DNA of 64,000 bases, taken from assembly GCA_018433085.1 (NCBI GenBank), contig JAHDRW010000012.1, positions 20,606-84,605 of the forward strand. The letters run 5' to 3'. Under the pieces are notes generated by a model. The model searched no databases and had not been told where the DNA came from. It was given only the letters and a program-made list of their open reading frames with translations. Origin of the DNA: Deltaproteobacteria bacterium (lineage in GTDB: Bacteria; Desulfobacterota; Desulfomonilia; UBA1062). Shown here piece by piece: positions 19,142 to 62,072 of the stretch (positions are counted from its first letter, which is position 1; each line of letters begins with the position of its first letter). Both the position numbers and the translations under genes were made by a program.

Positions 19142-19158
19142 GCAGGCAGGAAGAACCG

Positions 19159-35171: not shown

Positions 35172-35235
35172 CTTCTCGTCCCCTTTGGTTTCTTTCCGTC
35201 CCGTGGCTCTCTCTTCCCGCCGGCCCCGGCACCCG

Positions 35236-36501: not shown

Positions 36502-36528
36502 CTTCTTGTCCTCTCTATCTTGCGAATG

Positions 36529-37311: not shown

Positions 37312-37418
37312 GGCCTTTTCCTCCATTGTAGAATGCCCTCTTCACCGGCATGTCTGCCTGTCGCACATCATGGCAGCCTGGCCGGCCGCCGGGCGCGAGC
37401 CCTCGATGATTGTCCTCA

Positions 37419-38471: not shown

Positions 38472-38489
38472 CAGAGGCTTCTCCTTTCT

Positions 38490-39473: not shown

Positions 39474-39488
39474 CCGTCGATCCTCTTT

Positions 39489-43233: not shown

Positions 43234-43330
43234 CTCTATGCTCCTTTCTCCTGTATAAGTATTTTATTTGCCTTTAAGGATCGAACCGATCCCGGATATT
43301 GGTGCTTCCCTGTCTATCCGTTGCTCCCCC

Positions 43331-44575: not shown

Positions 44576-44595
44576 GGTATCTCTCCTTGCAGATG

Positions 44596-45702
44596 TTATT
44601 TCATGATGGATTCGATAAATCCTTCGATGCGAGTCTGAACTGGGGCCATATCGCACATATACTCCGTCTCGACAAAGCCAACCGGCACGCCCTTTTTGCG
44701 CAGCTCTCTCTCCAGATACGGAAAGTCCATTACTTCCGACTCACATGCCCTCTCTATGGCAAAGATCACCCCGTCGACGGCGTATTCCTGAACCAGATCG
44801 ATCAGATAGCTCATCCGATACTCGGCGGATATCGAGAATGGACAGGGGAGATTCGCATAGCTCCTGGCAATGGCCAGCAGCGGATCCTCGCCACTGTCGC
44901 TCTGGCCGGCCAGGGACCTCAGCCCCATGTTGGTGTCGTCACAGACTACGGTCGCGCCTGCGGCCTGGATGGTCTCGTAGATCCTCCCGTCGGTAAGGCA
45001 GGGCCCAGACACCAGGAGACGGGCTTTGGGCCTTTCTCCTGCAGGAAGATCCCGTATCTCGGAAAACAGCTTTTCCAGGAGGCGGTTGTTCTCCTCCTTA
45101 TCCATCACATGAGACACCATGAAAACATCGAACAGGTCTACACCGTTCAGGGGGGGCCTCTCCTGTTTCATCAAACTGCAGATATTCCCCAGCAGCTCTC
45201 TGTTCCGGTTATACACATCGATCGCATAGGTGAGCGCCTCTTCGAAGATTTTCCGGCCGGTGAATTCTTCCAGCTCCTTCTTGAGATTTTCCAGATCGTC
45301 CCTGAAAAAGGTCAGCGCGTTCTTCGTCTTGTTGAATCTCAGGCCCGCCATGGTCGCCACAAAGTCATTCTTCCGGTGATACCGCCATCCGCGGGCGAAA
45401 TATGTAACGGTCTCACACGACTCGGGCAGAACGACCCCGTCGAGAAAAGGATACTGGCCTTTGAGAACCTGGTCCCAGATGGCCCGGAAGATCGATGAGG
45501 TATAGACATGCAAATGCGCGTGCGCCATGTTGGTCTGTTCTCCGGGAAAGGGGAAGAGCCTGAATGGATGGAGACCTGCCGCGTGAATGACTTCTTGCGG
45601 AACAATCGGGTGCATGACGCCAATAAACTTTTTTTCAGACCGGCTGGAGGCTTCTGAAAGATACGCCCTCATATCCCTGGCGATTTGATTGATTTGTTCC
45701 AT
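44596..45702 (-). CDS. 2-hydroxyacyl-CoA dehydratase / benzoyl-CoA reductase family subunit (HgdA/BcrC-like), pair 1
   Basis: About 370 aa. FIGVMHPIVPQEVIHAAGLHPFRLF N-terminus and Cys residues typical of HgdA-type [4Fe-4S] subunits. Confidence 0.75.
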   Translation of the reverse strand: MEQINQIARDMRAYLSEASSRSEKKFIGVMHPIVPQEVIHAAGLHPFRLFPFPGEQTNMAHAHLHVYTSSIFRAIWDQVLKGQYPFLDGVVLPESCETVTYFARGWRYHRKNDFVATMAGLRFNKTKNALTFFRDDLENLKKELEEFTGRKIFEEALTYAIDVYNRNRELLGNICSLMKQERPPLNGVDLFDVFMVSHVMDKEENNRLLEKLFSEIRDLPAGERPKARLLVSGPCLTDGRIYETIQAAGATVVCDDTNMGLRSLAGQSDSGEDPLLAIARSYANLPCPFSISAEYRMSYLIDLVQEYAVDGVIFAIERACESEVMDFPYLERELRKKGVPVGFVETEYMCDMAPVQTRIEGFIESIMK

Positions 45703-45779
45703 GGCCGTCATTGGTGTTTTCCTCCTTGATAAACTTTCTTCCGTTTCTGTTTTGCAACAGTATCATCATTGATAACCGG

Positions 45780-46583
45780 TTACTTCTTGTCTCCGGGAAA
45801 CGTCGAAGGGAATCTGGGCTCCCGTTTCTCCTTGAACGCGGCAATGCCCTCCTGCATATCGTCCGAGAGCATCGTCATGACGTGTCCTCTGGCCTCATAC
45901 TCTACGGCCGTCGCCAGATCCATGGTGAGGCACTGGTACAGCGCCCTCTTGGCCATTCCCATCGCGAACGCCGGCCCTTTCGCCAACCGCCGGGCCAGCT
46001 TCATGGTTTCGTCTTCGAGCTGATCCGGCGGGACCACCCGGTTGACCAGGCCGATATCCCTCGCCTCGAAGGCATCGACGACCCTGCCGGAAAAGACCAG
46101 CTCCGCCGCCCTGGCCACGCCGATGAGGCGCGGGAGAAAGTAAATCGCCCCCGTATCGCTCTGAACCCCGATGTTCAGGTACACGTGGCCCAGCTTGGCC
46201 TTTTCGGAGGCGATCAGGATATCGGCGGCCAGGGCCAGGCCGAATCCGCCTCCGGCAGCCGCACCGTTGATCATCGCGATCACCGGTTTGGGCATGTTCC
46301 TGAGGTTGACCGCGACCTGTCCGAATGTCTGGACGACCTTTTCCAACTCGCCTGGGTCCTTGATATGGTACATGGGGGAGCTGAGATCCCCTCCCACGCA
46401 GAACGCCTTGCCCATGCCTGTGATGATGACCACCCGTGTATCCCTGTCTTCTGCCGCGTGCCTGGTGGCTTCTATGAGCTCACGGCACATGTCCATGGTC
46501 ATCCCGTTGAGGCTTTCCGGACGGTTCAGAGATATTCGGGTTATCCCGTCCTGCTGCTCACAGATGATATTCTGGTAATCCAT
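45780..46583 (-). CDS. Enoyl-CoA hydratase/isomerase (crotonase family)
   Basis: LNRPESLNG, ITGMGKAFCVGGDL and INGAAAGGGFGLALAADI. gagggagaag RBS before MDYQNII. Confidence 0.85.
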   Translation of the reverse strand: MDYQNIICEQQDGITRISLNRPESLNGMTMDMCRELIEATRHAAEDRDTRVVIITGMGKAFCVGGDLSSPMYHIKDPGELEKVVQTFGQVAVNLRNMPKPVIAMINGAAAGGGFGLALAADILIASEKAKLGHVYLNIGVQSDTGAIYFLPRLIGVARAAELVFSGRVVDAFEARDIGLVNRVVPPDQLEDETMKLARRLAKGPAFAMGMAKRALYQCLTMDLATAVEYEARGHVMTMLSDDMQEGIAAFKEKREPRFPSTFPGDKK

Positions 46584-46651
46584 CTTTCTTCTCCCTCTCA
46601 TGGTTCGATTGCCGTATGTTTGTTTCCCTGTCCTCTTGTGCCGGATATCCT

Positions 46652-48047
46652 TTATCCGTACGCGATCGAAGGCAGCCACGTGGCCAGCTCGGGCCAGAAC
46701 ATGACGGCTAGCAGACCAAGGACCTGAATGATGACAAAGGGAATGATCCCCTTGTAGATATCCACCAGCTGTACCTCAGGAGGGCATGCACCCTTCAGAT
46801 AGAATATCGCGAAGCCGACCGGAGGTGTGAGAAAGGACGTCTGGAGACAGATGGCGATGAGGATCGTGAACCAGATCAGGTCCGGATTGTCCAGCACGCC
46901 GAAGCCCTCTATGCCCAGAGCCAGCTTGCCGATGACCGGCCCCACGAGGGGGAGAATGATGAAGGTGATCTCGATCCAGTCGAGGAAAAACCCGAGCAGG
47001 AACACCCCGAGCAGTATCACGGTCAGGATACCGTACGGTCCGAAGGGCAGGCCCAGAAGAAACGATTCGATCACCTCGTCGCCGCCGAGCATGCGCATCA
47101 CCAGAGCAAAACAGCTCGCCGCTATGAGGATAGCGAAGATATAGGCGATCGTGCCGAAGGTCTGGTGCAGCACATCCTTGAATATCTGGAGATTCAGCTT
47201 CCGGTTGATGAGGGCGATCAGCGTGGCCCCGAACGCGCCGACGCCGCTCGCCTCCGTGATCGTGGCCATACCGGTGAAGATGGAACCGAGCACCGCGACC
47301 ATCAGCCCGAGGGGCGGCAGGATGGTCTTGAACACATCCCATACCACTTTCATCTGGAAGGGCTGCCGGTCTTCGCTCAGCGGGGCTTCCCGGGGCCTCA
47401 TAAAGGCATAAATCAGGATAAAGATCAGATACATCACGCCCAGGAGAATACCGGGGATAAAGGCCGCCATGAAGAGATCGCCGACCGCGAGTTGGAGCTG
47501 CTCCCCCATCATGACGAGCATGACGCTCGGAGGAATCAGGATACCCAGGGTGCCAGCCGCGCACACGGTGCCGGTGGCGAGGGACCGTGAATACCCCTGA
47601 TGGATCATGGCCGGCAGGGACAACAACCCGAGCAGGACGACCGAAGCCCCGATGATCCCCGTAGACGCCGCCAAGAGGATGCCGATAATGGCCACCGAGA
47701 CCGCGAGACCGCCGCGCACCTTGCCGAACAGATTCTGCATGGAATGCAGCATATTCTCGGCAATGCCCGAGCGGTCGAGCATCAGCCCCATGTACACGAA
47801 CATGGGCAGGGCGACCATCACCCAGTTCTCGAGAACACTGTATATGCGGTTGACAACCATCCCGAAAGAATTGAAGTCCAGAAAGGTCATAGTGCCCATA
47901 TATTGGTCAGCCAGATACCCGATTAGGGTGAACACCACCGAGATGCCGCCCAGAATGAACGCAATGGGATAACCGGTGAAAAGGAGAGCGATAAAGCTTA
48001 TGAACATCAGTATTATCAATATGGTATTTATTTCCACCTTACTGCTC
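46652..48047 (-). CDS. dctM: TRAP transporter large permease subunit (DctM family)
   Basis: About 465 aa, 12+ TM segments. YPIAFILGG N-terminus and the conserved GILIPPS motif. GTG start with aaggag RBS. Confidence 0.85.
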
Positions 48048-48566
48048 CTTCTTGATAAGCAATGCAAGGGATCGAACCATGCGGCTTAGAATGGCGACCC
48101 CCAGCAACCCGAATCCCAGCGGGATGAACAGCTTGATCAGCCATCGGTATGGCAGACCCATCGGGGCTGCCGAACACTCGCTGATCATCCAGGAATTATG
48201 GAAAAAGGCCCATCCGTGCACCATGATGATGATCCCCCAGGGAAAAACTAGGAAAAGGGATCCGAAAAGCTCGATCTTTTCCCTGGTGCGGGACCGGAAC
48301 CTGCTGCTCATAACGTCAAGCCGGATATGGGTATCCTTCGCCACCGCATACGCAAGGCCGAACATGACGTTCACCGAATAGAGGTACCATTCCATTTCAT
48401 CCAGAACGACGAGACCGTTCGAGAAAAAATAGCGCAGAATCACCTGGGTAATGATCAGCACCAGCAGCACGCCATTCAACCACGCAAGCGTGTTGCCTAT
48501 GCGGACGATGCCCCTGTCGGTGAAATCACTGATGGTGAGGAGAGACGAGGAAATGTCATTCATCAT
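48039..48566 (-). CDS. dctQ: TRAP transporter small permease subunit (DctQ family)
   Basis: 175 aa with 4 TM segments. Its 3' end overlaps the dctM start by 9 nt. Confidence 0.75.
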   Translation of the reverse strand: MMNDISSSLLTISDFTDRGIVRIGNTLAWLNGVLLVLIITQVILRYFFSNGLVVLDEMEWYLYSVNVMFGLAYAVAKDTHIRLDVMSSRFRSRTREKIELFGSLFLVFPWGIIIMVHGWAFFHNSWMISECSAAPMGLPYRWLIKLFIPLGFGLLGVAILSRMVRSLALLIKKEQ

Positions 48567-48693
48567 ACTATCCGTCCACGTTTGATGATGGTGATCCGGA
48601 GGATGCCGGGCAAGAACCCCGGCACCGTCCAGATCGTGAATTTATGGTTCTCTTTAAGCCTCTTACAGTCGTATTGAAGCCTGCCGCAGCCGA

Positions 48694-49770
48694 TTACTTT
48701 TCCGGTTCCGGCCTGGGAAGAGTCCCGTACGCCAGCCAGTAATTGTAATCCGGGAAGAACTCCTGCATGTCGTCCCATACCTTCTTGAAGCTGGGATCCT
48801 GCTCTCTCAGATCCTTCACCACGTCCATCCATGCGGCATGAATGGAATCGAGCATGTCCTCCGACCACCGCTTGTTGATAACACCACGCTTCTTGGCGTT
48901 GTTCTTGATGATCGGGCCTTGGATACTTTCCACATAGGAAATACCCTCAAGCGTCGCGGCCCGGCAGGTCAGCTCGATCATGGTTCTCTGGGTCTCACTC
49001 ATCTTGTTCCATACATCCTTGTTGATCAGCAGCTCGATGATGGTCGAAGGCTGGTGCCACCCGGGGAAATAATTGTACTTCACGACCTTGTACAGCCCGG
49101 ACGGCTCGTCAATGGCGGGCGATCCGTTTTCCACGGCATCGATGGCCTTTTTCTCGAGCGCCGAGAACACCTCGCCGACAGGTACCAGCGTAACGTTGAC
49201 CCCGAGCTTCTCCAGGGCGCGACCACCGTGGCCTGCGATCCTCATCTTGAGCCCATTGAAGTCTTCCGGCTTCTCGACGGGTTTTGCAAACCAGCCGCCG
49301 CTGTCCGGACCCAGGATTCCGCAGACCAGAACCTTCACGTTATAGCCGTTCTGGTCGTAGAGCTCCTGATAGAGCTTCATGCCGTTGCCGTGATAGAGCC
49401 ACGCGAGGTATCCGTTTATCTCGGGCCCGAACGGCACGCTTCCAAACAGCGGGGCAGCCGGCATCTTGCCCTGCCAGTAGTTTGCGCAGGAATATCCGGC
49501 CTGGATCTTCCCGTTGGAGACGGCGTCCAGGACCTCGAACGGCGGTACAAGCTTCCCGGGATCATAGACCATCATCTGAATCGAGCCGTCACTCACCGCC
49601 TTGAGATTCTCCGCTGTCCACGAGATGGTGGTGCCAAGGCCCGGAGTCTGCATCCCGAAACAGCTCTGGACACGCATGCGCACATCGCCCGCTATCGCCG
49701 GAACCGCTGAAGCCACCAGGAAAAATGCCGAAAGAATCACCGTACAGATCGTTGTTGCAACCTTACTCAT
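48694..49770 (-). CDS. dctP: TRAP transporter periplasmic solute-binding protein (DctP family)
   Basis: Signal peptide plus a DctP-type fold (GSVPFGPE..., RIAGHGG motifs). gaaggggg RBS. Confidence 0.8.
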   Translation of the reverse strand: MSKVATTICTVILSAFFLVASAVPAIAGDVRMRVQSCFGMQTPGLGTTISWTAENLKAVSDGSIQMMVYDPGKLVPPFEVLDAVSNGKIQAGYSCANYWQGKMPAAPLFGSVPFGPEINGYLAWLYHGNGMKLYQELYDQNGYNVKVLVCGILGPDSGGWFAKPVEKPEDFNGLKMRIAGHGGRALEKLGVNVTLVPVGEVFSALEKKAIDAVENGSPAIDEPSGLYKVVKYNYFPGWHQPSTIIELLINKDVWNKMSETQRTMIELTCRAATLEGISYVESIQGPIIKNNAKKRGVINKRWSEDMLDSIHAAWMDVVKDLREQDPSFKKVWDDMQEFFPDYNYWLAYGTLPRPEPEK

Positions 49771-50295: not shown

Positions 50296-51555
50296 CTAGA
50301 AAACGACCTTCCCGACAGACGGCTTGTTTGATTCGAGGGCTTCGGCAAAGGTTTCCAGCCTGATCCCCGTTTTCTCTTCGTCGAAAAAGGTGTCGTCCAC
50401 GAGGTCGCCTTCGATGATGGTAGACAGGACACCGAGCTTTTTCTGAACATAGTCCGCGATGTAGTGCATGGTGATGGAGAACGGCTTGCAGGTCATTGCA
50501 TATGCGAAGATCCCGGCCTCCATGTCATAATCCCTGTATAACTGCTCCGTGTACTCCGCCTTGTACCTGACATCTCTGTTGAGATAGAAGTAGGCGGTGT
50601 TCTCGGCAACGCTGTCCAGAGGTCGCTCCGGGTCGCTCCGGTCAAAGGCAAACAACTGGGAGTACGCACTCGTAACGAGGCAGATTCCCAGGCTTTGCAG
50701 TTTCTTCGACAGGAATCTCATGGCAAACCAGTACGGAATGCCGTCCCAGTACACCCTGTGCTTCATGTTCTCGAAGGGGACGATCCCTTCCCTGATCCTC
50801 TCGTTCATCTCCTGTTTCATCAGCCGGTAATGGTCTGCCACCTCGGGTTTGTATCTGAGCACGAGGTTCGGGAAATTATGGGGCATCAGGTCGAAGTAGG
50901 TTGACGGCGAGGGTTTGTGCTTGTTTATCTTTATCATGTCCGTATATCCCTTCGCACTCTCGCTGCCGTTCCTCACGACCTCCCTGAGCCTGTCGAGATC
51001 GAACTTCTTTCCGGTAAACTCCTCGAGGAAACGAATGAGATCCCCTATCTGGCCCTTGATATGACCGATGACATCCTTTTCCTGTATTCCCGGGATGATA
51101 TAGGGCGTATCGATGTGTATCATGGGGACGTCCCAGTAGTGACTGAGATGCTCCCACCACTTGGTGATGAGGCTGCAGCTGTTGTTGGCGACCAGCAGGA
51201 GATCGGGCGCGGGCAGCGGGTCGAACGGGTCCAGGCCTTCAATATCAGCCAGGGTCGACCCGAGACCGTTGCGGCAATAGGTGCACAGATGATGCTCGTA
51301 CCCCTTGTCTTCAGTGATCTTGCAGTGCCGGTAAGCCGCGTGCCGCGCCCCGCATGTGGCTGCATACGCCTCCGGGAACAGCACGCAGAAGTCCATCGCC
51401 CACAGTATCTCGTTGGGAGCGGCCGTAGTGGTCCACACGATCGGCTTCCGTTTCGACTCCTTGATCTCGCGGGCTTCCCGGTAATGATCGACAATCAACT
51501 TGCCAAGCCGATTCTGGGATTCCAACCTGTTGCCGATTTTCACCTCTGTTCCCAT
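50296..51555 (-). CDS. 2-hydroxyacyl-CoA dehydratase / benzoyl-CoA reductase family subunit (HgdB-like), pair 2
   Basis: 419 aa paralog of 43331..44575 (shared LLLVANNSC / LLMVVSNAC and Cys positions). aaggag RBS. Confidence 0.75.
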   Translation of the reverse strand: MGTEVKIGNRLESQNRLGKLIVDHYREAREIKESKRKPIVWTTTAAPNEILWAMDFCVLFPEAYAATCGARHAAYRHCKITEDKGYEHHLCTYCRNGLGSTLADIEGLDPFDPLPAPDLLLVANNSCSLITKWWEHLSHYWDVPMIHIDTPYIIPGIQEKDVIGHIKGQIGDLIRFLEEFTGKKFDLDRLREVVRNGSESAKGYTDMIKINKHKPSPSTYFDLMPHNFPNLVLRYKPEVADHYRLMKQEMNERIREGIVPFENMKHRVYWDGIPYWFAMRFLSKKLQSLGICLVTSAYSQLFAFDRSDPERPLDSVAENTAYFYLNRDVRYKAEYTEQLYRDYDMEAGIFAYAMTCKPFSITMHYIADYVQKKLGVLSTIIEGDLVDDTFFDEEKTGIRLETFAEALESNKPSVGKVVF

Positions 51556-51569
51556 TCACAACTCCTTTT

Positions 51570-52355
51570 TTATTCGGATCCAAGCCTGGATTTTGCGACA
51601 AGGGCAGCACCAAAGGCAGTGACAATCTGTGGATCTTCAGGCACGGTTATTTCACGTTTCATCGTACTGGCAAGAAGCGAAACGATCGCATCGTTTCTCG
51701 CGACCCCGCCAGTCATCACTACCCTTCCTGTGTCCCCGGGACCGATCGAGTTGATCAGCCCGTAAACACGGCTGACAATCGATTCGTGCAGCCCTGCGGC
51801 AATGTCTTCCTGCGGTGTCCTGCGAGCGATGAGGGATACGATCTCGGTCTGGGCAAACACGGTGCACGTACTGCTTATTCTGATCCTGTTTCCGGATCTC
51901 CTCGATAATGCTGCCAGCTCGGCAACGCTCACTCCGAGGGTCTCTGCGGCCACCTCCAGGAATCTACCTGTTCCGGCTGCACACTTATCGTTCATGGCGA
52001 AGTTGACCACCTTACCCTCGTCGTTTATCTTGATCGCCTTGCTGTCCTGGCCGCCGATATCCACGACCAGCCTTGCATCGGGATAGAAGTGGTAGGCACC
52101 CACGGCGTTGCAGGTGATTTCCGACATCGTGTCCGCTGCGAAAGGCACACTGACCCGCCCATACCCTGTCGCAACTATGCGTTGAATGTCATCGAAGGTG
52201 TGGCCGAGCTCCTGTGCCGCATTTTCGACAACCTTCCGGGCCACTGCATACAGATCCGTACCAGTCGGGAATAATGCTGACCGGAAGACATGATCCTCCT
52301 TGAGAACAACGGCTTTCGATGTCTGCGATCCGATATCAACACCAGCTACTATCAT
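51570..52355 (-). CDS. HgdC/BcrAD-type ATPase 'activase' of 2-hydroxyacyl-CoA dehydratases (CoA-substrate-specific enzyme activase)
   Basis: MIVAGVDIGSQTSKAVVL (ASKHA-fold N-terminus) and NDKCAAGTGRFLE (cluster-bridging Cys motif), about 262 aa, as in HgdC. It is the only such ATPase in the cluster. Confidence 0.85.
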   Translation of the reverse strand: MIVAGVDIGSQTSKAVVLKEDHVFRSALFPTGTDLYAVARKVVENAAQELGHTFDDIQRIVATGYGRVSVPFAADTMSEITCNAVGAYHFYPDARLVVDIGGQDSKAIKINDEGKVVNFAMNDKCAAGTGRFLEVAAETLGVSVAELAALSRRSGNRIRISSTCTVFAQTEIVSLIARRTPQEDIAAGLHESIVSRVYGLINSIGPGDTGRVVMTGGVARNDAIVSLLASTMKREITVPEDPQIVTAFGAALVAKSRLGSE

Positions 52356-52377
52356 GGCTTCACCCTCATTCGTTGTT

Positions 52378-53532
52378 TTAGAGACTGAGCATTTCCAGAT
52401 ATCCCTGTATCCTCGTTCTCTGCGTCTCCAAAGATCCGGCTTCATGCCCTGTATTGAGCGTGATGTGGGCGATGTTCTGCTCTTCCAGCCTTTTTTTCAG
52501 CATGACGAACTCCAGATCAAAGGGGTCGCAGTACATTTCTCTCAATAGGATGACTCCCTGGATCCCGTTCTCCAGCACATAGTCCGCAACATAGTCGCCG
52601 TAGGTGGAAAGGGATCTGTCCTGTTCAATCCAGTTTTGGGGGTAGTGGTAGGTTGTACAGGGAGTGAGGCCCAGGTAGAAATCGGCATATGCCTCGACCG
52701 GGTCTCCGGAACAGGGCACATCGACCGAGAAATAGCGCGACCCGGTGAAAAAATCGTCCCCAACGATCACTGCACCCATCTCTTCGATCAGGTCCAGGAT
52801 CTCCTCTTCCGGCATGCCGCAGGGGTGTCCACAGACCATAATCTTCGGTTTTTCACCGGGCTCGCACTCCAGATCTTGGGCCTGAACGAGAAGCTTCTTC
52901 AGAAGCGAATTATACTCTTCCTTGGGCATGATCATCCCGGCGGCGATCGCCTTTGCCAGATCAGAGGACTTCAATAATCCGGGCCTGGTTTTCCTGATGT
53001 CATTCAATGCCCTCATAAGGGAACGTGTTTCATTGAAAAGACGAATGCTCTCACGGAGCTTATCCGGTGTTATGGCCTTGCCGGCGAACTCCTCGAGCCC
53101 GGATTTCAGCCTCTTGAGTTCGTTCAGCAGAAACGGGCGCGAGGCCTCGCTCATATTGAAGGGACGCCACATCTGATGAAAAAAGGCGAACTCATGATCC
53201 AGGCTCCAGACCTGAAAAAAGAACCTGACCTGGTCACAGATCAGCACCGCGGCAACCCCGTCCAGGGCATCATACTTCCCGGACAGCAAGTCTTCGAAGG
53301 TGCTCCGGACCGCCCCGCACGCATTGGTCATGAGGTGTCGGTTCGCATGGGTGATCGGCCCGTTGCCGCCGAAGAGCGTGACAGGCAGCAGACCTGCAGC
53401 ATGGACGAATTCTTCCGGAAAATACATGGGGAGGCAGCCGATGACCTTTCCCCCTGTATCATCTTTCCATTTTACTATTTCACTGTTCCGCCGAGAGTAA
53501 CGAAGCTTAAGATTATCCAAAATCGATTGCAT
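52378..53532 (-). CDS. 2-hydroxyacyl-CoA dehydratase / benzoyl-CoA reductase family subunit (HgdA-like), pair 2
   Basis: About 385 aa paralog of 44596..45702 (VIGCLPMYFPEEFVHAAGLLPVTLF versus FIGVMHPIVPQEVIHAAGLHPFRLF). First gene after the sigma-54 promoter. Confidence 0.75.
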   Translation of the reverse strand: MQSILDNLKLRYSRRNSEIVKWKDDTGGKVIGCLPMYFPEEFVHAAGLLPVTLFGGNGPITHANRHLMTNACGAVRSTFEDLLSGKYDALDGVAAVLICDQVRFFFQVWSLDHEFAFFHQMWRPFNMSEASRPFLLNELKRLKSGLEEFAGKAITPDKLRESIRLFNETRSLMRALNDIRKTRPGLLKSSDLAKAIAAGMIMPKEEYNSLLKKLLVQAQDLECEPGEKPKIMVCGHPCGMPEEEILDLIEEMGAVIVGDDFFTGSRYFSVDVPCSGDPVEAYADFYLGLTPCTTYHYPQNWIEQDRSLSTYGDYVADYVLENGIQGVILLREMYCDPFDLEFVMLKKRLEEQNIAHITLNTGHEAGSLETQRTRIQGYLEMLSL

Positions 53533-53597
53533 ATGTTTGCCCACCTGTCGTGATGATTAAAAGGCCTTATCTTTTTGCGTCGACATTTCAGGTGTAA

Positions 53598-53613
53598 GGC
53601 AAGAACAGTACCA
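53598..53613 (-). promoter_or_regulatory. Sigma-54 promoter (TGGTAC-tgttc-TTGCC) of the HAD operon
   Basis: Minus-strand read of ggcaagaacagtacca. GG/GC spacing is canonical. 55-65 nt upstream of the first gene. A near-identical copy lies at 58631. Confidence 0.7.
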
Positions 53614-53720
53614 CCATCCCGGGCAGGACGATATTTGGGCTGGATTTATCAGATTAATCAAAAGGTTGTAAACAATTTGCCGAATCGGCGCATCATGGCC
53701 GGAATTTATCTCCCTCAGGG

Positions 53721-53770
53721 GCCTGTAACAATATCTAACAAACCATGCTCCATTATGCTACATGTCACAG
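53721..53770. promoter_or_regulatory. Conserved about 50-bp upstream activating sequence (copy 1) roughly 107 bp upstream of the sigma-54 promoter
   Basis: gcctgtaacaatatctaaca-aacc-atgctccattatgctacat-gt-cacag. 45/50 identical to 58753..58802. Contains helical-phased direct repeats TAACA(N6)TAACA and ATGCT(N5)ATGCT. Confidence 0.65.
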
Positions 53771-54027: not shown

Positions 54028-54528
54028 TTACTCGCCGAGATGCACGATGAGAACGGGTTTCGTGCACTTGCGGACAACATGCCTGGCGGTATAGTCCAGC
54101 AGGGCCTTCCCCACGGAGGTCACGGAATGCGCGCCCACAATGACCAGGTCGAACCCCTGCTCGTCGACCATGGTGAGGATGGTCTTCTCTGCATTCCCGA
54201 GGACAACGGTCACATTTTCGACAAACTCATCGAATTCGGCACCTTCGCACATTCGGGTGCAGGTGTCCTGAAGCCGCCTCTGAATGACTTCCAGGGCCTC
54301 CTGCTGATTTTTCTTCAGCAGTTCTTCCCACTTTTTTTCTCCCACGACAGAGCTCACCAGGGAAGACGTACTCTGAGACATTTTCTCGATGACATGCAGC
54401 GCGGTAATCTTTGCCTGAAATCGTTTGGCAATGCTGAGCGCATACCCGAATGCATGTTCCGCCCTCTCGGACAAGTCGGTCACATACAGGACCCGTTTGA
54501 AATCATAGTTCATGATCATTCCTTTCAT
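54028..54528 (-). CDS. Universal stress protein (UspA family)
   Basis: RVLYVTDLSE N-terminus and VIVGAHSVTSVGKALLDYTARHVVRKCTKPVLIV (ATP-binding G-2x-G-9x-G(S/T) region). Confidence 0.8.
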   Translation of the reverse strand: MKGMIMNYDFKRVLYVTDLSERAEHAFGYALSIAKRFQAKITALHVIEKMSQSTSSLVSSVVGEKKWEELLKKNQQEALEVIQRRLQDTCTRMCEGAEFDEFVENVTVVLGNAEKTILTMVDEQGFDLVIVGAHSVTSVGKALLDYTARHVVRKCTKPVLIVHLGE

Positions 54529-54745: not shown

Positions 54746-56653
54746 CTACGGACGGATATCGTCCAGTCCCAGTTCGGCCAGTTTTTCCTTTGTGGGTATG
54801 CCGGTTTTCTTGTCCCATCCCCGGCACTCGTAGTAATCGTCCAGGGCATCCTGGACATCTTCTTTCCGAAGAAGTTTCTTCTTGTAGTAATCTTTCATCA
54901 CGTGTTCTTTGTCATCGGCTGTCTTGAGCGCCTTGAACCACTGCTGGGGTATCTGGCTATCGTCTCTCAACACGCCTTCCCTGACATTCGTCATCCTCGA
55001 TATGGTCCATACGCGTTCGACCGCCTTCATCACCGAAGGCACGTCGATATCGTGCCCGGTCGCCGCTGAATAAAGCTCGGCCAGCAGCCCCGCCGAATAA
55101 TACCGGTCGTTCCCTGCCCGGTTGCACACCCCCATGCAGCTCATGAGACAGACCCAGTCCTCGAAACACCGGGTGAAGCTGCCCAGTCTGAATCCGTCAT
55201 CAACAGCGAAGATCCGCTCCATGAGCTCGGGCGATCCTCCTACCCGTCCGCAATGACGCTTCATGGCATCGGGCGGAAGGTTCGGTACGGTCGTAGGCGA
55301 CCCGCCGTATGCGGAATACGGGCCCCTGGGGCTTACCAGCTGCTCGAATTCCATGGTGCCCAAAGCCCACAACCGCGGCTCCCAGATCACGTTGATTCCG
55401 TTAATCGTGTAGGCGTGCCCTTTGGCCTTCTCGCCCACAAACTCGATCATTCCTTCCCATCCCTCCGCCATGGCGTCCCCGAAGCCCTCGCGCGCCATCA
55501 TCATGTCCACGAGCCGGTTCACGCTCTCGTAGTCCCGCTTCAGCTCAAAGCCGATGTCTTCCTTCTTCAGCAGCCCCGCCTCGTAGAGATCGAAGGGAAA
55601 GTCCAGCAGCCCTTCCATTGTCTGGCCGCATAGCCCCAACCGGTCAAACTTATTGTAAATATATGCCGCCTGCTTGATATCGTTGATGGCAAATCTGGTC
55701 GCAAAAGCCGGTATGTTGATGAACGAGGTGATCCCCATGGTGAACCTGGAACACTCACCATCGTCAAACTCCAGTAGATCCTTGCACCCAACCAGACACG
55801 ACGTGCAGGCTACCCGAGACTTCTTGATGCTCTTGTACGAGGGAATGCCGAATGTCTTTGTCACCTCCTCGGGGGTCAGATGCTCGGTACTGAAATACTC
55901 AGTTATCAACCCTTCCCAACCTGCCATCATACCCAGATCCACCACCTGGTTCCGGGCCTTGAACTCCATCATCCGCTTGACCAGACCGGACACGCTCTTT
56001 TCGAACCGTTTGGGGTCGGCTATAGTCATGCCTTTTGTCCCGTACGCGACTACCGCCTTTAAATTCTTGGATCCCATTACGGCCCCAAGACCTCCCCTGC
56101 CAAGAGAGGATATGCCGTCAACATTGGCTTGCGCATTGGTCACCTGCTGCTCTCCTGCAGGCCCTACGCAAATCGTCCCCGCCCCGTCGTAGACGGTCTT
56201 CAGCTCCGCGGTCACCTCATACACGTCGCGGCCCCAGAGATGACGCGCATCCTCAACCGTTATCGTATCGTCGGTGATCACCACCATAACCGGGCTCTCG
56301 GATTTGCCTGTCAGTACGATATGATCATACCCAGCCCATTTCATCATGCTCGCAAAGCTCATGCTCCCCGCAGAGCTTCCTACCATCTTGCCGATCGGAA
56401 ACTTCGTGGTCGCAAATATCTTGGACGCTCCCGGAACCGATGTCCCCACAAGGGCTCCTGCCCCGAATACGATCGGATTCTCAGGCGCCCGGGGGTCTGT
56501 CCCCGGGATCATCGCGTCATACGCAAGCTTGTGATTGATCCCGTAACCCCCCAAAAACGACTCGACCATGCTCTCCTGTATAGGCTCCTCGCTCACCCGC
56601 CGATTCGTCAGATCCACGTATGCGACCTTCCCGCCAAATCCGTGCTTACTCAT
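54746..56653 (-). CDS. Aldehyde:ferredoxin oxidoreductase family protein (tungsten/molybdopterin), second copy
   Basis: MSKHGFGGKVAYVDLTN...FLGGYGINHKLAYDA...PENPIVFGAG...AAGSMS is the AOR N-domain; 635 aa. The start overlaps the stop of the upstream oxidoreductase gene. Confidence 0.85.
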   Translation of the reverse strand: MSKHGFGGKVAYVDLTNRRVSEEPIQESMVESFLGGYGINHKLAYDAMIPGTDPRAPENPIVFGAGALVGTSVPGASKIFATTKFPIGKMVGSSAGSMSFASMMKWAGYDHIVLTGKSESPVMVVITDDTITVEDARHLWGRDVYEVTAELKTVYDGAGTICVGPAGEQQVTNAQANVDGISSLGRGGLGAVMGSKNLKAVVAYGTKGMTIADPKRFEKSVSGLVKRMMEFKARNQVVDLGMMAGWEGLITEYFSTEHLTPEEVTKTFGIPSYKSIKKSRVACTSCLVGCKDLLEFDDGECSRFTMGITSFINIPAFATRFAINDIKQAAYIYNKFDRLGLCGQTMEGLLDFPFDLYEAGLLKKEDIGFELKRDYESVNRLVDMMMAREGFGDAMAEGWEGMIEFVGEKAKGHAYTINGINVIWEPRLWALGTMEFEQLVSPRGPYSAYGGSPTTVPNLPPDAMKRHCGRVGGSPELMERIFAVDDGFRLGSFTRCFEDWVCLMSCMGVCNRAGNDRYYSAGLLAELYSAATGHDIDVPSVMKAVERVWTISRMTNVREGVLRDDSQIPQQWFKALKTADDKEHVMKDYYKKKLLRKEDVQDALDDYYECRGWDKKTGIPTKEKLAELGLDDIRP

Positions 56654-58346
56654 GATCCTCTCCTTCCCCAGAAATCCCGTGTGGAAGATCTTCCTTTACC
56701 CGCAAAAAATCGTCCGCCCTCGTCAAGGCCCCGTACGGACAGTACCGGGCACAAATCCCGCAGTCTTCGCACTCCTGCGTAAACGATATCTCGTTGAGCT
56801 TGCCGAAAACCGTGTTCACCCTGACCTTGATGTTCGCCTTCAGCGGGTTGAAATAACCCAGCTTGGCCAACGAGCAGTAGTACGCGCAGGTCTGGCACCC
56901 CGTGCACTTCGAGGCGTCAATGAGTATCGGCACATCACACCTCAGGCACTGGTTCGACTCCCCTCTCGCTGTCTCGCAGTCAAATCCCTTGTCCACCTCT
57001 TGGAAATTGCCGATCCTCTCTTCCACGCTCAGAAGATTGTGCGGCCTCTTTCCCCGCAGGTGATGACCCTGCAAGGGTCGCGTCCTGAGATCCTCTCTCA
57101 GACGTGTCTCATCCTGTACAGAGGAGCCTCCCAGAAACCGGACAATGCCCTCGGCAGCCCTTCTCCCCTGCGCGATCGCCTCGGTCACCGAAGACGTGTA
57201 CAGCACGTCGCCTCCGGCAAACACCCCCTTGACCGAGGTCTGAAGCGTCCCCTCGTCAACCTGGAGAAACCCGTTCCGGTTGAACCTCAACTCAGAGGAC
57301 CCCGCCTGGAGATCGGGCATCTGCCCTGTGGCAACGATGACCGTATCCGCCGAAAAACTCAGCTTCGAACCCTGCCTGGCAACGGGCCGTCTCCTCCCGC
57401 TCTCGTCGGGCTCGCCCAGCTCCATCTCACAGCACTCCACACAGGTGATAACCTCTCCTTCGCGCACCACCGCGGTCGGCGCCACCAGATACATCACCTC
57501 GATCCCTTCCTGCTCCGCGCTTACAATCTCCTCTTCGGTCGCCGGCATCTCGTTCCTGGTGCGCCGGTAGAGAATATGAACCTCTTTGGCACCCAGCCTC
57601 AGGGCAGAGCGGGCCGCGTCGATCGCCGCGTTCCCACCACCGATCACCGCCACCTTCCCGCCCATGCTCACCGGCCGGTTCGCCCGCACCTTCTTCAGAA
57701 AATCCAGCGCGGTCATCACGCCCTCGCCCTCGATGCCCGGCACGTCGATCTCTGCAGACTTGTGCGCGCCCGTGGCAAGAAAAACCGCGCTGTATCCCTC
57801 ATCGAACAGACCCGAAATCGTGATGTCTTTCCCCAGCTCCGTGTTCAGATGAATCGGCACCCCGGAGAGCTCGATGTCCCTGATCTCCCTGCTCACGATA
57901 TCCAGCGGCAGCCGGTACTCCGGAATGCACGCCGTCATCATGCCGCCCGGAACGGATTCCCGCTCGAAGACACTCACACCGTATCCCCTCTCACGCAGGC
58001 AAACCGCTGCGGTCAGCCCCGCAGGACCCGATCCGATGACGGCGATCTTCTCCTTCTTCGTGGGCTCACCAAACTTCCTCGGCACAATCCCGGCCGTGTC
58101 GCTCGCATACCGCTTCACCCCATTGATCGATATCGAATCGGCCAGCTGCCGACAGTTGCACTTGTCCTCGCACGGCCTGAAACAAACCCTGCCCACCGTC
58201 TCCGGAAAGGGTATGACCTCCCGAATCACCGCAACAGCAGCCTCCGCATCGCCAATGGCCACGTACCTCAAATACCGCGGTATATCCACACGCGCAGGAC
58301 ACGCTTCCCTGCATGGCGCCATCCTCTTGGGCTCCTTGAACCTCAT
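56646..58346 (-). CDS. GltD/NfnB/SudA-like FAD- and NAD(P)H-binding oxidoreductase fused to a C-terminal 2x[4Fe-4S] ferredoxin domain; predicted electron-transfer subunit of the adjacent AOR
   Basis: N-terminal CREACP...GRVCFRPCEDKC (GltD-type FeS), IAVIGSGPAGL (FAD) and VAVIGGGNAAID (NAD(P)) motifs. C-terminal CTGCQTCAYYC...CEDCGICARYCP. Confidence 0.8.
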   Translation of the reverse strand: MRFKEPKRMAPCREACPARVDIPRYLRYVAIGDAEAAVAVIREVIPFPETVGRVCFRPCEDKCNCRQLADSISINGVKRYASDTAGIVPRKFGEPTKKEKIAVIGSGPAGLTAAVCLRERGYGVSVFERESVPGGMMTACIPEYRLPLDIVSREIRDIELSGVPIHLNTELGKDITISGLFDEGYSAVFLATGAHKSAEIDVPGIEGEGVMTALDFLKKVRANRPVSMGGKVAVIGGGNAAIDAARSALRLGAKEVHILYRRTRNEMPATEEEIVSAEQEGIEVMYLVAPTAVVREGEVITCVECCEMELGEPDESGRRRPVARQGSKLSFSADTVIVATGQMPDLQAGSSELRFNRNGFLQVDEGTLQTSVKGVFAGGDVLYTSSVTEAIAQGRRAAEGIVRFLGGSSVQDETRLREDLRTRPLQGHHLRGKRPHNLLSVEERIGNFQEVDKGFDCETARGESNQCLRCDVPILIDASKCTGCQTCAYYCSLAKLGYFNPLKANIKVRVNTVFGKLNEISFTQECEDCGICARYCPYGALTRADDFLRVKEDLPHGISGEGEDHE

Positions 58347-58630: not shown

Positions 58631-58646
58631 GGCAAAAACAGTACCA
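58631..58646 (-). promoter_or_regulatory. Sigma-54 promoter (TGGTAC-tgttt-TTGCC) of the oxidoreductase-AOR-usp operon
   Basis: Minus-strand read of ggcaaaaacagtacca; the flanking bases are also conserved with the copy at 53598. Confidence 0.7.
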
Positions 58647-58752
58647 TCATACCGGGGAGGACGCTTATTCAGTTATATCGACTATAGAATTGGTTACTTA
58701 TAGGGTATTTGCCAAGTTTCTCACCGCCATGGCCTTCAAGAAGGACACCGGC

Positions 58753-58802
58753 GCCTGTAACAATATCTAACAGGTAATGCTCCATTATGCTACATACCAC
58801 AG
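58753..58802. promoter_or_regulatory. Conserved about 50-bp upstream activating sequence (copy 2)
   Basis: gcctgtaacaatatctaaca-ggta-atgctccattatgctacat-ac-cacag. Same 107-bp spacing to its sigma-54 promoter as copy 1. Confidence 0.65.
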
Positions 58803-59068: not shown

Positions 59069-61075
59069 TCAGTACGGCAGATTGTACTTCACCATCTTCC
59101 GGTATAACGTGTTCCGGGAGATATTCAGATGACTGGCTATCTTTGACTTGGATATATTTGATTGTATCAGATCGCAGATGATTTTCTTTTCCATGTCCTC
59201 CAGTGTCGGGTAGTTCTCGAAAACAGGTTCCTTCTGTTCCACCGCCGCGCATGCGGCCCGCTGCTCGGACCCGGAATGGATTATCTCCTGAGGAATATCA
59301 TCACTCGTGATGGTTTCTCCTTCGGCTATGTTATACGACCTCTCCAGTATGTTCTGAAGCTCTCGTACGTTCCCGGGCCAGGGATATCTCTCGAGCATTT
59401 CCAGAACGTTTTTGTCGACCTTTGTTATCCCCCTGTTGTTACATTTATTCAATTTCTTCAGAATATTGATGACCAGAAGGGGTATGTCTTCGGTCCTTTC
59501 CCGCAGAGGAAAAAGCTCGATGGAAAAGACGTTCAGGCGATAGTAAAGATCTTCCCGGAAATTTCTCTTGAGGATCTCTTCTTTCAGGTCTTTATTTGTC
59601 GCTGCGATTATCTTGACATCGACAGGAATGATGTTTTTCCCGCCGATCCTCATGATCTCCTTGTTCTCGATGACCCTTAGCAGAATCGACTGCAGTTCGA
59701 GCGGCATTTCTCCGATTTCGTCCAGGAATATCGTGCCACCGTCGGCAAGCTCGAACTTGCCGGGATTCCCGCCCCTGACCGATCCGGTAAACGCCCCCTC
59801 GGCATACCCGAAAAGCTCGCTCGCGATAAGCTCCCGGGGTATCGCAGAGCAGTTGATGGCCACGAAGGGCTTGCCGGACCGCATGCCCTCGTTGTGGATC
59901 GCCTGGGCAAAAATATCTTTGCCGGTACCGCTCTCTCCAAAGAGCAGCACGTTTGAATCGGTCTTCGATGCGATCTTGGCGATTTCTATCAGTTTCAAAA
60001 ATCTAGGATTGCGTGATACAATATGAGAAAAGGTGAATTTTGCTTTGGCCCCGATCATATCCGCCACCAGTTTCTTGGCTCTCTTTATCTCACTGAAGAT
60101 GATCACCTTTCCGTAGATTTCGTTATTGCACGTCTTGATTGTCTGGGTGGTTAACATATAATTCGCCCACCTGCTGTTTATGAACAGCGGGACCTGCTTG
60201 TCGATGACGTTCGTCCCGTTCATCAGATAGGGAAACAGCTTTTCGTTTTCGCTCCCCAGGAACTCCTTGATGTTACGCCCCACGATATCCTCTTCTACCT
60301 GGAACATGCTCCGGGCGTTTTCATTGGTGAAGATGATATCTCCCTGGTTGTCGACTGCAACAAGTGCCTCGGGAATGGAGCAGATCACGGCGTTCTTTAG
60401 GTTCTCGGCGATCTGGGTCTCGCGATAGGCCTTCTGGATCTGCAGGTTCTTTTCGATTGCATTCGCTGCGGCAACGACCATCCCCAGGGTGTGGGAATGT
60501 GCATTGGGACAGGGACATACCATGTTCAGCACCCCCAGGATGTTCCCCTCATAGTCGTGAATGGGAGCCGAGGAACAGGTATATTTGTGGAACATCAGGC
60601 AGTAGTGCTCGCTGCCGAATATCTGCACGGGCTTGTCCAATCGGATCACCGCGCCCACCCCGTTCGTGCCGATATATTTTTCCTGCATGCAGGCCCCGGG
60701 GCGATAGTTCCAGGAAGAGAGCGTTTCCATGACCTCGGGATTGCCGAGGGTGAAAATCAGGGTGCCCTCCGAATCCGACAGGGAGCAGATATACCTCGAG
60801 CCGAACCCGGCCGTTATTACGAAATTATACAAGTTCTCCAGAAAAGGATAGCTGGTCTTTATGAGATGATCGTGCTTTTCCTGGACCTTTCGCAACTCAT
60901 CCTCAGACAGGATCTGCGGTATTTCGCTGAGGTAGGGATCGATGCCCCGTTTCCTCGCTTCTTCCCAGGATGCCAGAACATGCCCGTGAATGACCTTTTT
61001 ATTCACCAGGTTGCCAGAGACAAAATTCTCCCACTCCTTGAGCATCGCTTCATACTTGTCTTTGATTTTGCTCAT
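59069..61075 (-). CDS. Sigma-54-dependent transcriptional activator (bacterial enhancer-binding protein) with N-terminal GAF/PAS sensory region, AcoR/PrpR-like
   Basis: GESGTGKDIFAQAIH (Walker A), GAFTGS (the GAFTGA sigma-54 contact motif), DGGTIFLDEIGEM (Walker B), the arginine-finger region and a C-terminal Fis-type HTH (ISRNTLYRKM). About 670 aa from MSKIKDK with aaggagcag RBS. Confidence 0.9.
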   Translation of the reverse strand: MSKIKDKYEAMLKEWENFVSGNLVNKKVIHGHVLASWEEARKRGIDPYLSEIPQILSEDELRKVQEKHDHLIKTSYPFLENLYNFVITAGFGSRYICSLSDSEGTLIFTLGNPEVMETLSSWNYRPGACMQEKYIGTNGVGAVIRLDKPVQIFGSEHYCLMFHKYTCSSAPIHDYEGNILGVLNMVCPCPNAHSHTLGMVVAAANAIEKNLQIQKAYRETQIAENLKNAVICSIPEALVAVDNQGDIIFTNENARSMFQVEEDIVGRNIKEFLGSENEKLFPYLMNGTNVIDKQVPLFINSRWANYMLTTQTIKTCNNEIYGKVIIFSEIKRAKKLVADMIGAKAKFTFSHIVSRNPRFLKLIEIAKIASKTDSNVLLFGESGTGKDIFAQAIHNEGMRSGKPFVAINCSAIPRELIASELFGYAEGAFTGSVRGGNPGKFELADGGTIFLDEIGEMPLELQSILLRVIENKEIMRIGGKNIIPVDVKIIAATNKDLKEEILKRNFREDLYYRLNVFSIELFPLRERTEDIPLLVINILKKLNKCNNRGITKVDKNVLEMLERYPWPGNVRELQNILERSYNIAEGETITSDDIPQEIIHSGSEQRAACAAVEQKEPVFENYPTLEDMEKKIICDLIQSNISKSKIASHLNISRNTLYRKMVKYNLPY

Positions 61076-62072
61076 AGCTGCTCCTTCGATAGGCATTATT
61101 ATGTCGGCAAGCCATCTCCCTTTCCCGTGATCGGGGACCGCGGGAATAGAGCTGGTCAAAACCGGTCCGGATGTGCTCGCGCCGGTTGACGCCACCGTCC
61201 GGTACATGATGTACAGAAATTTCACGGTCTCCCGGCAGATGGTCACCTGCATGGCGAGAACCCTTGAGAGTCAGTACAGAAAGGTCTCCACCCTCTTGGA
61301 TGTACGGGATGAGCGTCAATACAGAAAGATCGCCGAACGGCCCGGAACATGCGGAGAAAAGGCCGCATCCAGGCGCTTCTCCTCCTGTTTTCCGGGGGCG
61401 AATCATGACGTGCGTGTGATCGTGCCGAGAAAGAAACTCCCTGTCACCCGCAGGCATGCGTTCCGCAACAAGGCAGCTTTGTTCGTGAACGTGCCGGAAG
61501 CAAGACTGCATCATTCGAGAAGCTTCCTCCTTCTCTGGGTGCTTACCTATTCAAGAATTCACAGGTGTCCGCCGGTACAAAACTGGTTTGCCATTCTGCT
61601 TACCGTGAGCCCTCCCCCCTCTCACGCGTATTCAGGGAAGACACTCACTACAGTGTCTCAACATAAAACAATTGACGATATTGATTAATAGATCATGTTT
61701 GACCAGCATTTGCAAGAGACAAATACCGTTGCAGGGGCAACCCTGCTCCCGGGAACACCCTTGCACGCCATAGCAATGAGGACCAGGCGGCGACGATTCT
61801 TCCGTGGTCTGGCCCGCGTATCGTTCCGAGGAGTCATCAGGGCAGCACCGGACACAGACTGCAAGATACCTGGTACAATATGAAACGTAGTGTATTGTTA
61901 TGAAACAATCCCTCAGACCACCCGCTCGGGACGGTAGAGGATCTTTTATTTCATAAGGTTTTGTTATTTCACCATATTTAAAATTGTTCCCCGAATTGGT
62001 TCGGTCCTTGCTAAATAAAGGGCAATCAGGAAAACCTGACTCTCACTCCCATAAAGTGAGAACCCTCCTCTT

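Follow-up and report, generated by a model that had tools for sequence, protein, structure and literature searches.

Two overlapping deltaproteobacterial genes most likely encode an NADP(H)-linked enzyme of the AOR/WOR family that joins a pterin subunit to an Nfn/GltD-type flavoprotein-ferredoxin fusion

The 64,000-nucleotide stretch of DNA analyzed here (hereafter, the window), taken from contig JAHDRW010000012.1 of a Deltaproteobacteria bacterium, harbors on its minus strand two overlapping genes that most likely encode the subunits of an NADP(H)-linked tungsten/molybdenum-pterin enzyme of the aldehyde oxidoreductase/tungsten oxidoreductase (AOR/WOR) family, for which complex formation, NADP specificity and the metal itself are predicted. 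The first gene, here termed FLAVO (56646..58346), codes for a 566-aa fusion of a flavoprotein with a ferredoxin, and the second, here termed AOR2 (54746..56653), for a 635-aa, non-canonical AOR/WOR-family pterin subunit; the other AOR gene of the window is termed AOR1 (13132-15093). The FLAVO stop and the AOR2 start share 8 nt within ATGAGTAA, and a GGAGAGG Shine-Dalgarno sequence for AOR2 lies inside the 3' end of FLAVO, just upstream of the overlap. The exact products of both genes are also annotated in public assemblies. A universal stress protein gene (54028..54528, minus strand; Pfam Usp, 4.2e-28) follows as the third gene of the operon, a position that it keeps in two of the loci compared in this work (L001, which is 87-92% identical, and L131), and a search for intrinsic terminators gave no convincing candidates. 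The initial annotation of this region had described a flavoprotein resembling the small subunit of glutamate synthase, with a C-terminal two-cluster ferredoxin and a stop overlapping the AOR start, and this description holds: both open reading frames (ORFs) are present, together with the expected Pfam domains and FeS, FAD and NAD(P) motifs.

From its N-terminus, FLAVO comprises a two-cluster Fer4_20 domain (residues 10-85, 1.5e-15; 58092-58319), FAD/NAD(P)H domains matched by Pyr_redox_2 (residues 100-394, 4.5e-33; 57117-58064), a linker (residues 436-472; 56931-57041) and a 2x[4Fe-4S] ferredoxin domain (Fer4/Fer4_9, residues 474-542; 56712-56927). The motifs GSGPAG at residue 105, GGGNAAID with YRR at 260 and FAGGD at 378 are all present. 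Alignment of 43 members of the family reveals 15 invariant cysteines (12/16/55/59/63, 467/470, 481/484/487/491 and 526/529/532/536), which are enough for four [4Fe-4S] clusters. By analogy with NfnB and DPD, these would form two Fer4_20-type clusters, ligated by seven cysteines and one non-cysteine residue, and two ferredoxin clusters. The opening CxxC of the Fer4_20 domain is missing from the N-terminus of FLAVO and the invariant C467xxC470 is found instead in the linker downstream of the flavin domains, an arrangement of cluster ligands that is shared with NfnA and StnC and looks like a circular permutation.

Among proteins of solved structure, FLAVO is closest to NfnA of the Bfu-type NfnABC (9bov_A, E=2e-110), followed by a second NfnA (E=1.3e-89), NfnB of Thermotoga (E=6e-88), StnC (E=1.1e-86) and GltD (E about 1e-64), with NfnL and DPD also among the best matches (E values not recorded). 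An AlphaFold model based on the 43-member alignment (pLDDT 88.2, pTM 0.88) retrieves the same proteins as its top Foldseek matches (NfnA 9bov_A, StnC, NfnL, NfnB, GltD and DPD), and NfnA and StnC align with it through the linker and FeS part (TM-score 0.76). The NCBIfam model NF009410, which has the same architecture, scores 440 bits, under its cut-off of 516 bits. Sequence and predicted fold thus place the flavin module in the NfnA/NfnL/GltD/DPD family, of the NAD(P)H-oxidizing type; the 9BOV protein is the NADPH-oxidizing subunit of Caldicellulosiruptor NfnABC, in which the FAD oxidizes NADPH. FLAVO also keeps the YRR after the second Rossmann fold, matching the NADPH-using relatives, and by analogy with them it is likely to be specific for NADP rather than NAD. 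Neither the operon nor its annotated neighborhood contains a gene for an NfnS-type partner (FAD plus [2Fe-2S], the high-potential branch), which rules out a bifurcating Nfn.

The initial annotation had read the fusion as the AorA and AorC subunits of AorABC joined in one polypeptide. AorC is a 46-kDa subunit carrying only FAD, and AorA is a four-cluster polyferredoxin. As an AorC-type comparison protein we used an ORF from the WorS-AOR-AorC locus of a Pseudomonadota metagenome-assembled genome (MAG; L071), which matches AorC itself (8c0z_E) at 6.5e-55 and whose other relatives are BphA4, rubredoxin reductases, putidaredoxin reductases and NADH oxidases. Its match to FLAVO is not significant (BLASTP E=0.32) and FLAVO therefore lies outside the AorC family; likewise, AorC (8c0z) does not figure among the top 60 sequence matches or the top 50 fold matches of FLAVO. 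This direct comparison rules out a literal fusion of AorA with AorC. The flavin module is of the NfnL/GltD type, whereas AorC is of the FeS-free ferredoxin-reductase/NADH-oxidase type, and the ferredoxin domain has two clusters against the four of AorA.

The ferredoxin domain, on the other hand, is homologous to the dedicated partner ferredoxins of AORs. It matches two-cluster ferredoxins of 74-96 aa encoded directly beside AOR-family genes, as well as the N-terminal half of the four-cluster, WorS-type proteins of about 160 aa that are also encoded beside AOR genes, and the motif CxxCxxCxxxCS...FNPxK(A/S)xI is common to all three. Moreover, it aligns collinearly with a stand-alone 89-aa ferredoxin, to which it is closely similar and which adjoins an AOR 77% identical to AOR2 in locus L126. 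Since its homologues stand alone beside AOR genes, the domain can be identified by sequence as the AOR's own small ferredoxin subunit, in a clear case of gene fusion or fission.

AOR2 matches AFOR_N (1.1e-62) and AFOR_C (2.5e-55) in Pfam, at E-values that, like those of the FLAVO domains, chance cannot account for. Its AlphaFold model (pLDDT 92.5) has the WOR fold and aligns with all nine solved members of the family with TM-scores of 0.80-0.85 at 22-26% identity. The four [4Fe-4S] ligands are all present as Cys283/286/290/510 (PfAOR Cys288/291/295/494), and, as regards the predicted bis-pterin cofactor, the GRGGLGAVMGSKNLK-type motif is kept. Among 120 clade members, 99 have Asp as the third cluster ligand (residue 290, PfAOR Cys295; window positions about 55784-55786), while AOR2 and its closest relatives have Cys. 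The window contains no tungstate transporter or MoaD-like genes. AorB, of which AOR2 had been taken to be the counterpart, ranks sixth by sequence and seventh by fold among the nine solved relatives (22% identity), and its match to AOR2 (1.4e-38) is confined to the N-terminal domain. In a rough neighbor-joining (NJ) tree, AOR2 falls in one superclade with nearly all of the AORs partnered by small ferredoxins or by fusions, with members in Desulfatiglans, Chloroflexota, Abyssubacteria and several Asgard lineages; the canonical AORs (PfAOR, WorL of Acetomicrobium, the AorB-like protein of L071 and AOR1) and BamB branch apart from it, and AOR2 lies outside the AorB/PfAOR clade (clade 87). AOR2 is not, then, AorB-like, but a member of a large uncharacterized superclade that extends from Thermodesulfobacteriota and Chloroflexota to the Asgard archaea and possesses neither the four second-shell residues of aldehyde-oxidizing members nor the cysteine of BamB.

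The association of the two genes is conserved. In the first three FLAVO homologues with a genomic context (92%, 46% and 45% identity), an AOR gene lies immediately downstream in every case. An alignment of the linker and ferredoxin region specific to the fusion, used next to search metagenome contigs, gave 36 fusion loci, 24 of which have an AOR directly downstream and two directly upstream, while two copies of one sequence have it about 3 kb away, four show no AOR in 0.8-2.2 kb of flanking sequence and four lie on contigs that end too early to judge. An adjacent AOR gene is thus found in 26/32 testable loci (about 80%), which bears out the initial proposal that flavoprotein-ferredoxin and AOR form a real module. 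The partner AORs share 26-40% identity with AOR2 and are non-canonical in all but one case. When 1.84 billion cluster representatives were searched exhaustively with this linker-ferredoxin query, 642 of them matched at E<=1e-3; of the best 52, about 30 are of the fusion type and the remainder are small ferredoxins. Among the matches listed in a scan of a genome collection with an AOR alignment, most came from other AOR clades (26-31% identity); these were used as controls and to find partner ferredoxins.

AOR orthologues encoded without any flavoprotein, on whose absence the initial annotation had staked its reading, do exist. A small ferredoxin is the only partner of the AOR2 relatives in L126 (77% identity), L127 (56%) and L132 (47%), and likewise of the Desulfatiglans homologue, and the homologue of Freyrarchaeum has no partner. 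Because close relatives of AOR2 occur without it, the flavoprotein can be regarded as an exchangeable add-on to a ferredoxin-AOR core. In L133 (6210-8953), a 91-aa ORF consisting only of a Fer4_20 domain and a 92-aa ferredoxin precede an AOR 42% identical to AOR2, and this arrangement looks like a flavoprotein-ferredoxin fusion that either lost its flavin domains or was split.

Upstream of FLAVO lies a gene for a sigma-54-dependent activator with GAF, PAS, AAA+ and HTH_8 domains (59069..61252, minus strand; Pfam Sigma54_activat 2.3e-66), which is annotated as 668 aa with MimR_N in another assembly and whose best NCBIfam match, DhaR, is below the cut-off of that model. A putative -24/-12 promoter of the sigma-54 type, TGGTACTGTTTTTGCC (58631..58646, minus strand), precedes FLAVO; the 34 nt in which it lies share 88% identity with the promoter block at 53597-53630, where a second putative promoter of this type, TGGTACTGTTCTTGCC (53598..53613, minus strand), lies upstream of the first of the HGD-D genes described below. 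Each promoter is located about 110-125 bp downstream of one copy of a 53-nt element resembling an upstream activating sequence (58750..58802 and 53718..53770, both on the minus strand; 87% identical to each other), and the exact 18-mer and 19-mer cores of this element occur in the window only at these two sites, against a chance expectation of 0.01-0.03. The presence of the same promoter and 53-nt element before both operons supports a single regulon of two operons, with putative site functions, and it is probable that the sigma-54 activator regulates both. The placing of the pair in a regulon with dehydratase-like genes by the initial annotation is therefore upheld. A further copy of the upstream element, with three mismatches (29524-29541), is followed after about 80 bp by the sigma-54-like site TGGTATAGTGCTTGCT (29611-29626, plus strand), and an ORF without Pfam match (30045-31169) comes after the two; this segment (29524-31169) is a possible third member of the regulon.

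The operon that shares this promoter module encodes a trio related to 2-hydroxyacyl-CoA dehydratases (50296..53544, minus strand; Pfam HGD-D and BcrAD_BadFG, NCBIfam HadC/HadB and CoA_E_activ), made up of a beta-like subunit (52378-53544), an ATP-dependent activase (51570-52445) and an alpha-like subunit (50296-51555); among solved proteins, the latter matches 2-hydroxyisocaproyl-CoA dehydratase alpha at 5e-48, versus 1e-17 to 1e-22 for benzoyl-CoA-reductase subunits. The remainder of the same-strand cluster (41548..49770) consists of a DctPQM TRAP transporter (46652-49770), an enoyl-CoA hydratase (45780-46679), a second HGD-D pair (43331-45711) and an AMP-forming CoA ligase (41548-43233). The second HGD-D pair is 24-28% identical to orthologues of the first pair elsewhere and has no activase of its own. 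Beyond these genes, an acetoin-dehydrogenase-type set on the same strand (31476..40481) runs in the order E1 alpha, E1 beta, Zn-dependent alcohol dehydrogenase (ADH), enoyl-CoA hydratase (ECH), E2, E3, lipoate ligase and lipoyl-synthase-like radical SAM protein; the minus strand reads, in order, from the activator through FLAVO, AOR2 and Usp to the trio, the transporter, the hydratase, the second HGD-D pair, the ligase and this last set. Its E3 (33444-35171) has an N-terminal lipoyl domain and is followed by the lipoate-protein ligase and the lipoyl-synthase-like gene (31476-35171 in all), which suggests that the complex comes with lipoylation genes of its own, as do anaerobic acetoin dehydrogenase systems. 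None of these neighbors matches the HGD-D/Had or acetoin-dehydrogenase families at an equivalog cut-off.

This gene set is also conserved around AOR2-type genes elsewhere. Orthologues of the trio (51-70% identity) flank AOR2 orthologues in L126, L127/128 and L129/130; overall, AOR2-type genes are linked to the dehydratase trio in four lineages, in varying order, and to acetoin-dehydrogenase-type genes in two. In L129 they form a compact array (MarR, FLAVO-like, AOR, HGD-D, activase, HGD-D, E1a, E1b, ADH, ECH, E2, E3) that equals the gene set of the window minus the transporter and ligase insert, and which also lacks the second HGD-D pair. Other fusion-AOR pairs adjoin family III CoA-transferases, acyl-CoA dehydrogenases, enoyl-CoA hydratases, old-yellow-enzyme-type reductases, electron transfer flavoprotein (ETF) genes and beta-oxidation genes. 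In a Syntrophaceae MAG (L033) and an Acidobacteriota MAG (L037), less than 2 kb separates canonical AORs from E1 alpha/beta (and E2) genes of the pyruvate dehydrogenase (PDH)/acetoin type, which hints at a wider link between AORs and complexes that cleave C-C bonds with thiamine pyrophosphate (TPP) and lipoate. AOR1 (minus strand) is itself canonical, with PfAOR as best match (7e-97), PEYES and His448 kept, and the Thr, Glu and His of the second shell in place; it had been considered as a proxy for BamB and was dropped from that role once it proved to be a canonical AOR. Its neighbors are a TetR gene and the genes for a glycyl-radical enzyme of 986 aa, extended at the N-terminus by about 190 aa (16181-19141), and for the enzyme that activates it (19159-20088); this locus (13132-20088) looks like a separate aldehyde-generating module.

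On this evidence, we propose that the pair may oxidize an aldehyde produced in the course of this pathway and reduce NADP+ with the electrons, a reading to which we assign a probability of roughly 45%. The large subunit would provide the bis-pterin metal site and one [4Fe-4S] cluster, and its small two-cluster ferredoxin subunit would be fused to the C-terminus of an NfnL/GltD-type flavoprotein with two [4Fe-4S] clusters, FAD and an NADPH site. Electrons would then travel from the metal site through the [4Fe-4S] cluster of the large subunit, the two ferredoxin clusters, the two flavoprotein clusters and FAD to NADP+, while the relatives with only a small ferredoxin would pass them to ferredoxin instead. 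The NAD(P)-coupled, AorABC-like wiring put forward in the initial annotation (pterin site, FeS chain, FAD and NAD(P)) is in this sense reasonable, although the proteins are not a homologous build of AorABC. The sigma-54 activator would switch on the pair together with the dehydratase-like operon, as part of a conserved catabolic gene set that includes the acetoin-dehydrogenase-type complex. Acetoin-dehydrogenase systems cleave acyloins into an acyl-CoA and an aldehyde, and the E3 with its lipoyl domain, the dedicated lipoylation genes and the AcoR/MimR-like activator suggest such a cleavage as a candidate source of the aldehyde, which would be oxidized to the acid with transfer of electrons to NADP+; more speculatively, the acyl part, if 2-hydroxylated, would be a substrate of the dehydratase. 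The acid-activating and beta-oxidation genes around the relatives would consume an acid product. As for the direction, the acid/aldehyde couple, at about -500 to -580 mV, lies far below NADP+/NADPH, at about -320 mV, so that oxidation of the aldehyde is downhill and reduction of the acid by NAD(P)H is not; figures of -500 mV for acid/aldehyde and of -280 mV appear in the WOR literature.

Several observations weigh against this proposal, the absence of the second shell being the chief argument against aldehyde oxidation and the one that keeps non-aldehyde chemistry in play. Thr243, Glu313, Tyr427 and His448 (PfAOR numbering) are conserved in all characterized aldehyde-oxidizing members, and GAPOR retains the Thr and Glu. 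The alignments give Ile, Trp and Ser for Glu313, Tyr427 and His448 in AOR2, and the poorly aligned Thr243 position is Gly, Met or Glu depending on the alignment, and never Thr. The only characterized members that lack these residues are BamB, which has another chemistry, and YdhV and CsWOR41, with no known or detectable aldehyde activity. In a census of the 120 best homologues of AOR2, Glu313 is found in none, Glu311 is replaced by Ser in 104, and the His448 position, which is followed by a clade-specific GGSPT loop, holds Ser in 70, His in 21 and Val in 20. In addition, GltD-type modules often serve as an input for NADPH, so homology leaves the direction of electron flow unfixed; the acetoin-dehydrogenase-type genes lie 14 kb from the pair in the window; the sigma-54-like site about 155 bp upstream of E1 alpha, TGGTACGCTTGTTGCT (40635-40650), comes without the shared upstream element; and the metal, the activity and the complex itself are ascribed to the pair by inference.

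The same complex might instead act as an NADPH-driven reductase, or catalyze another redox reaction, with a substrate that is not an aldehyde and has a moderate potential, a CoA thioester of the neighboring dehydratase-like radical enzyme being a likely candidate, and with an aprotic pterin pocket by analogy with BamB. The exchange of the four second-shell residues for mostly hydrophobic or small ones (Ile, Trp, Ser, Gly/Met) would fit such a pocket. BamB shows that the family is capable of non-aldehyde chemistry, the modules of GltD, DPD and NfnA feed electrons from NADPH into FeS chains, the AOR and HGD-D genes are tightly linked and overlap in L129, and enzymes of CoA esters surround other pairs. 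Yet the position of the BamB/YdhV cysteine (BamB Cys322) is Phe or Tyr, preceded by a conserved Ser, across the 120 homologues, the nearby Cys301 of AOR2 is not conserved among them and, with no cysteine ligand and no Bam-type partner genes, a BamB-like arene reductase is ruled out. Nor can a candidate substrate be named, the dehydratase-like subunits are closer to true dehydratases than to reductases, and the genomic contexts fit an acid-producing step equally well. We regard this alternative as a serious rival, though less probable than aldehyde oxidation, and give the same rather low probability to the reading that the pair carries out a new non-aldehyde reaction in concert with the ATP-dependent radical enzyme, fed with NADPH through the fused flavoprotein-ferredoxin, and would represent a new functional class of tungsten/molybdenum enzyme.

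Less probable still, the main task of AOR and ferredoxin domain could be to provide the ATP-dependent activase of the dehydratase-like enzyme with electrons of low potential, with the flavoprotein coupling the pool to NADP(H). Activases such as HgdC and HadI require a one-electron donor of low potential, the aldehyde/acid couple is very low, and the ferredoxin-AOR unit adjoins HGD-D, activase and HGD-D genes in the four lineages mentioned above. However, the ferredoxin is homologous to fixed WorS-type subunits and not to free carriers, its fusion to a flavoprotein speaks against a diffusible one, no dehydratase is found near many of the pairs and ferredoxin-AOR units, and activation takes only catalytic amounts of electrons. 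The acid-to-aldehyde direction suggested as a possibility in the initial annotation is thermodynamically implausible and can be given very little credence with NAD(P)H as donor: CoA ligase genes are nearby and AORs are reversible with donors of very low potential (PMC9295118), but AorABC can reduce acids only when H2 or donors of this kind are supplied, NAD(P)H would have to work about 200-260 mV uphill, and the operon encodes no second, high-potential branch or NfnS-type bifurcation partner. Finally, membership of the AorABC family with AorA and AorC fused would account for the similar cofactor count (five [4Fe-4S], FAD and pterin site) and NAD(P) logic, but it is refuted as a claim of homology by the relationships of FLAVO set out above, by the two clusters of its ferredoxin and by the equal distance of AOR2 from all solved members, and is almost certainly incorrect.

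The pair most likely represents a second, independently assembled way of wiring the WOR family to pyridine nucleotides, in the form of a fusion that recurs in tens of sequence clusters and adjoins AOR genes in about 80% of the testable cases. NAD-linked WORs are an established class: in the 2026 WOR classification they make up Class III (WorL + WorS + WorN), of which AorABC is the only characterized case, and NAD(P)-linked tungsten oxidoreductases are of biotechnological interest. The main text of that classification makes no mention of GltD/Nfn-type or fused partners, and in the literature searched we found neither a GltD-type fusion nor dehydratase-like enzymes described as partners of an AOR, and no link of 2-hydroxyacyl-CoA dehydratases or acetoin dehydrogenase systems to an AOR-family enzyme; reports on ketone degradation mention dehydratase-like subunits and no AOR. 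The pair also points to a widespread AOR clade devoid of the residues with which known aldehyde oxidizers carry out catalysis, and to a conserved link with 2-hydroxyacyl-CoA-dehydratase-like enzymes. If these AORs do oxidize aldehydes, the 'universal' second shell is dispensable; if they do not, the family has a third kind of chemistry.

Among known systems, the neighboring genes resemble, by family match, the 2-hydroxyacyl-CoA dehydratases with their activases (HadBC/HadI, HgdAB/HgdC) and the acetoin dehydrogenase enzyme systems. Like BamB, of class II benzoyl-CoA reductase, and YdhV, AOR2 belongs to the AOR family without the Glu/His/Tyr/Thr second shell, but those proteins have a cysteine metal ligand where AOR2 has Phe/Ser, and their partner subunits differ. 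With the Class II WORs (WorL + WorS) and the small-ferredoxin/AOR pairs it shares the motif of the ferredoxin, which is here covalently joined to an NADPH flavoprotein. FLAVO has the Fer4_20 two-cluster, FAD and NADPH domains of NfnA, StnC, NfnL/NfnB, GltD and DPD, and aligns with NfnA and StnC also in the CxxC segment after the flavin domains and in the downstream ferredoxin-type clusters; unlike in the Nfn, GltD and DPD systems, its partner is an AOR-family subunit instead of BfuBC, NfnS, the alpha subunit of glutamate synthase or the FMN domain of DPD, and no bifurcation partner is present. A further close parallel is AorABC of Aromatoleum aromaticum (Class III/type N), in which a pterin subunit with one [4Fe-4S] cluster is likewise connected through four more [4Fe-4S] clusters and one FAD to a pyridine nucleotide, and whose genes, as predicted for the pair, are co-transcribed and lie in an aldehyde-generating catabolic context. 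AorABC differs in its FeS-free AorC of the ferredoxin-reductase type, where FLAVO has an NfnL/GltD-type module with two clusters of its own; in its separate, four-cluster, filament-forming AorA, where FLAVO has a fused two-cluster ferredoxin; in an AorB only 22% identical to AOR2 and equipped with the catalytic second-shell residues; in its MoaD-like aorDE genes; and in its use of NAD, where NADP is likely here. The pair is thus not a fused AorABC but an independent build that joins an NfnL-type flavoprotein to the equivalent of a half-size WorS and combines this fusion with a non-canonical large subunit.

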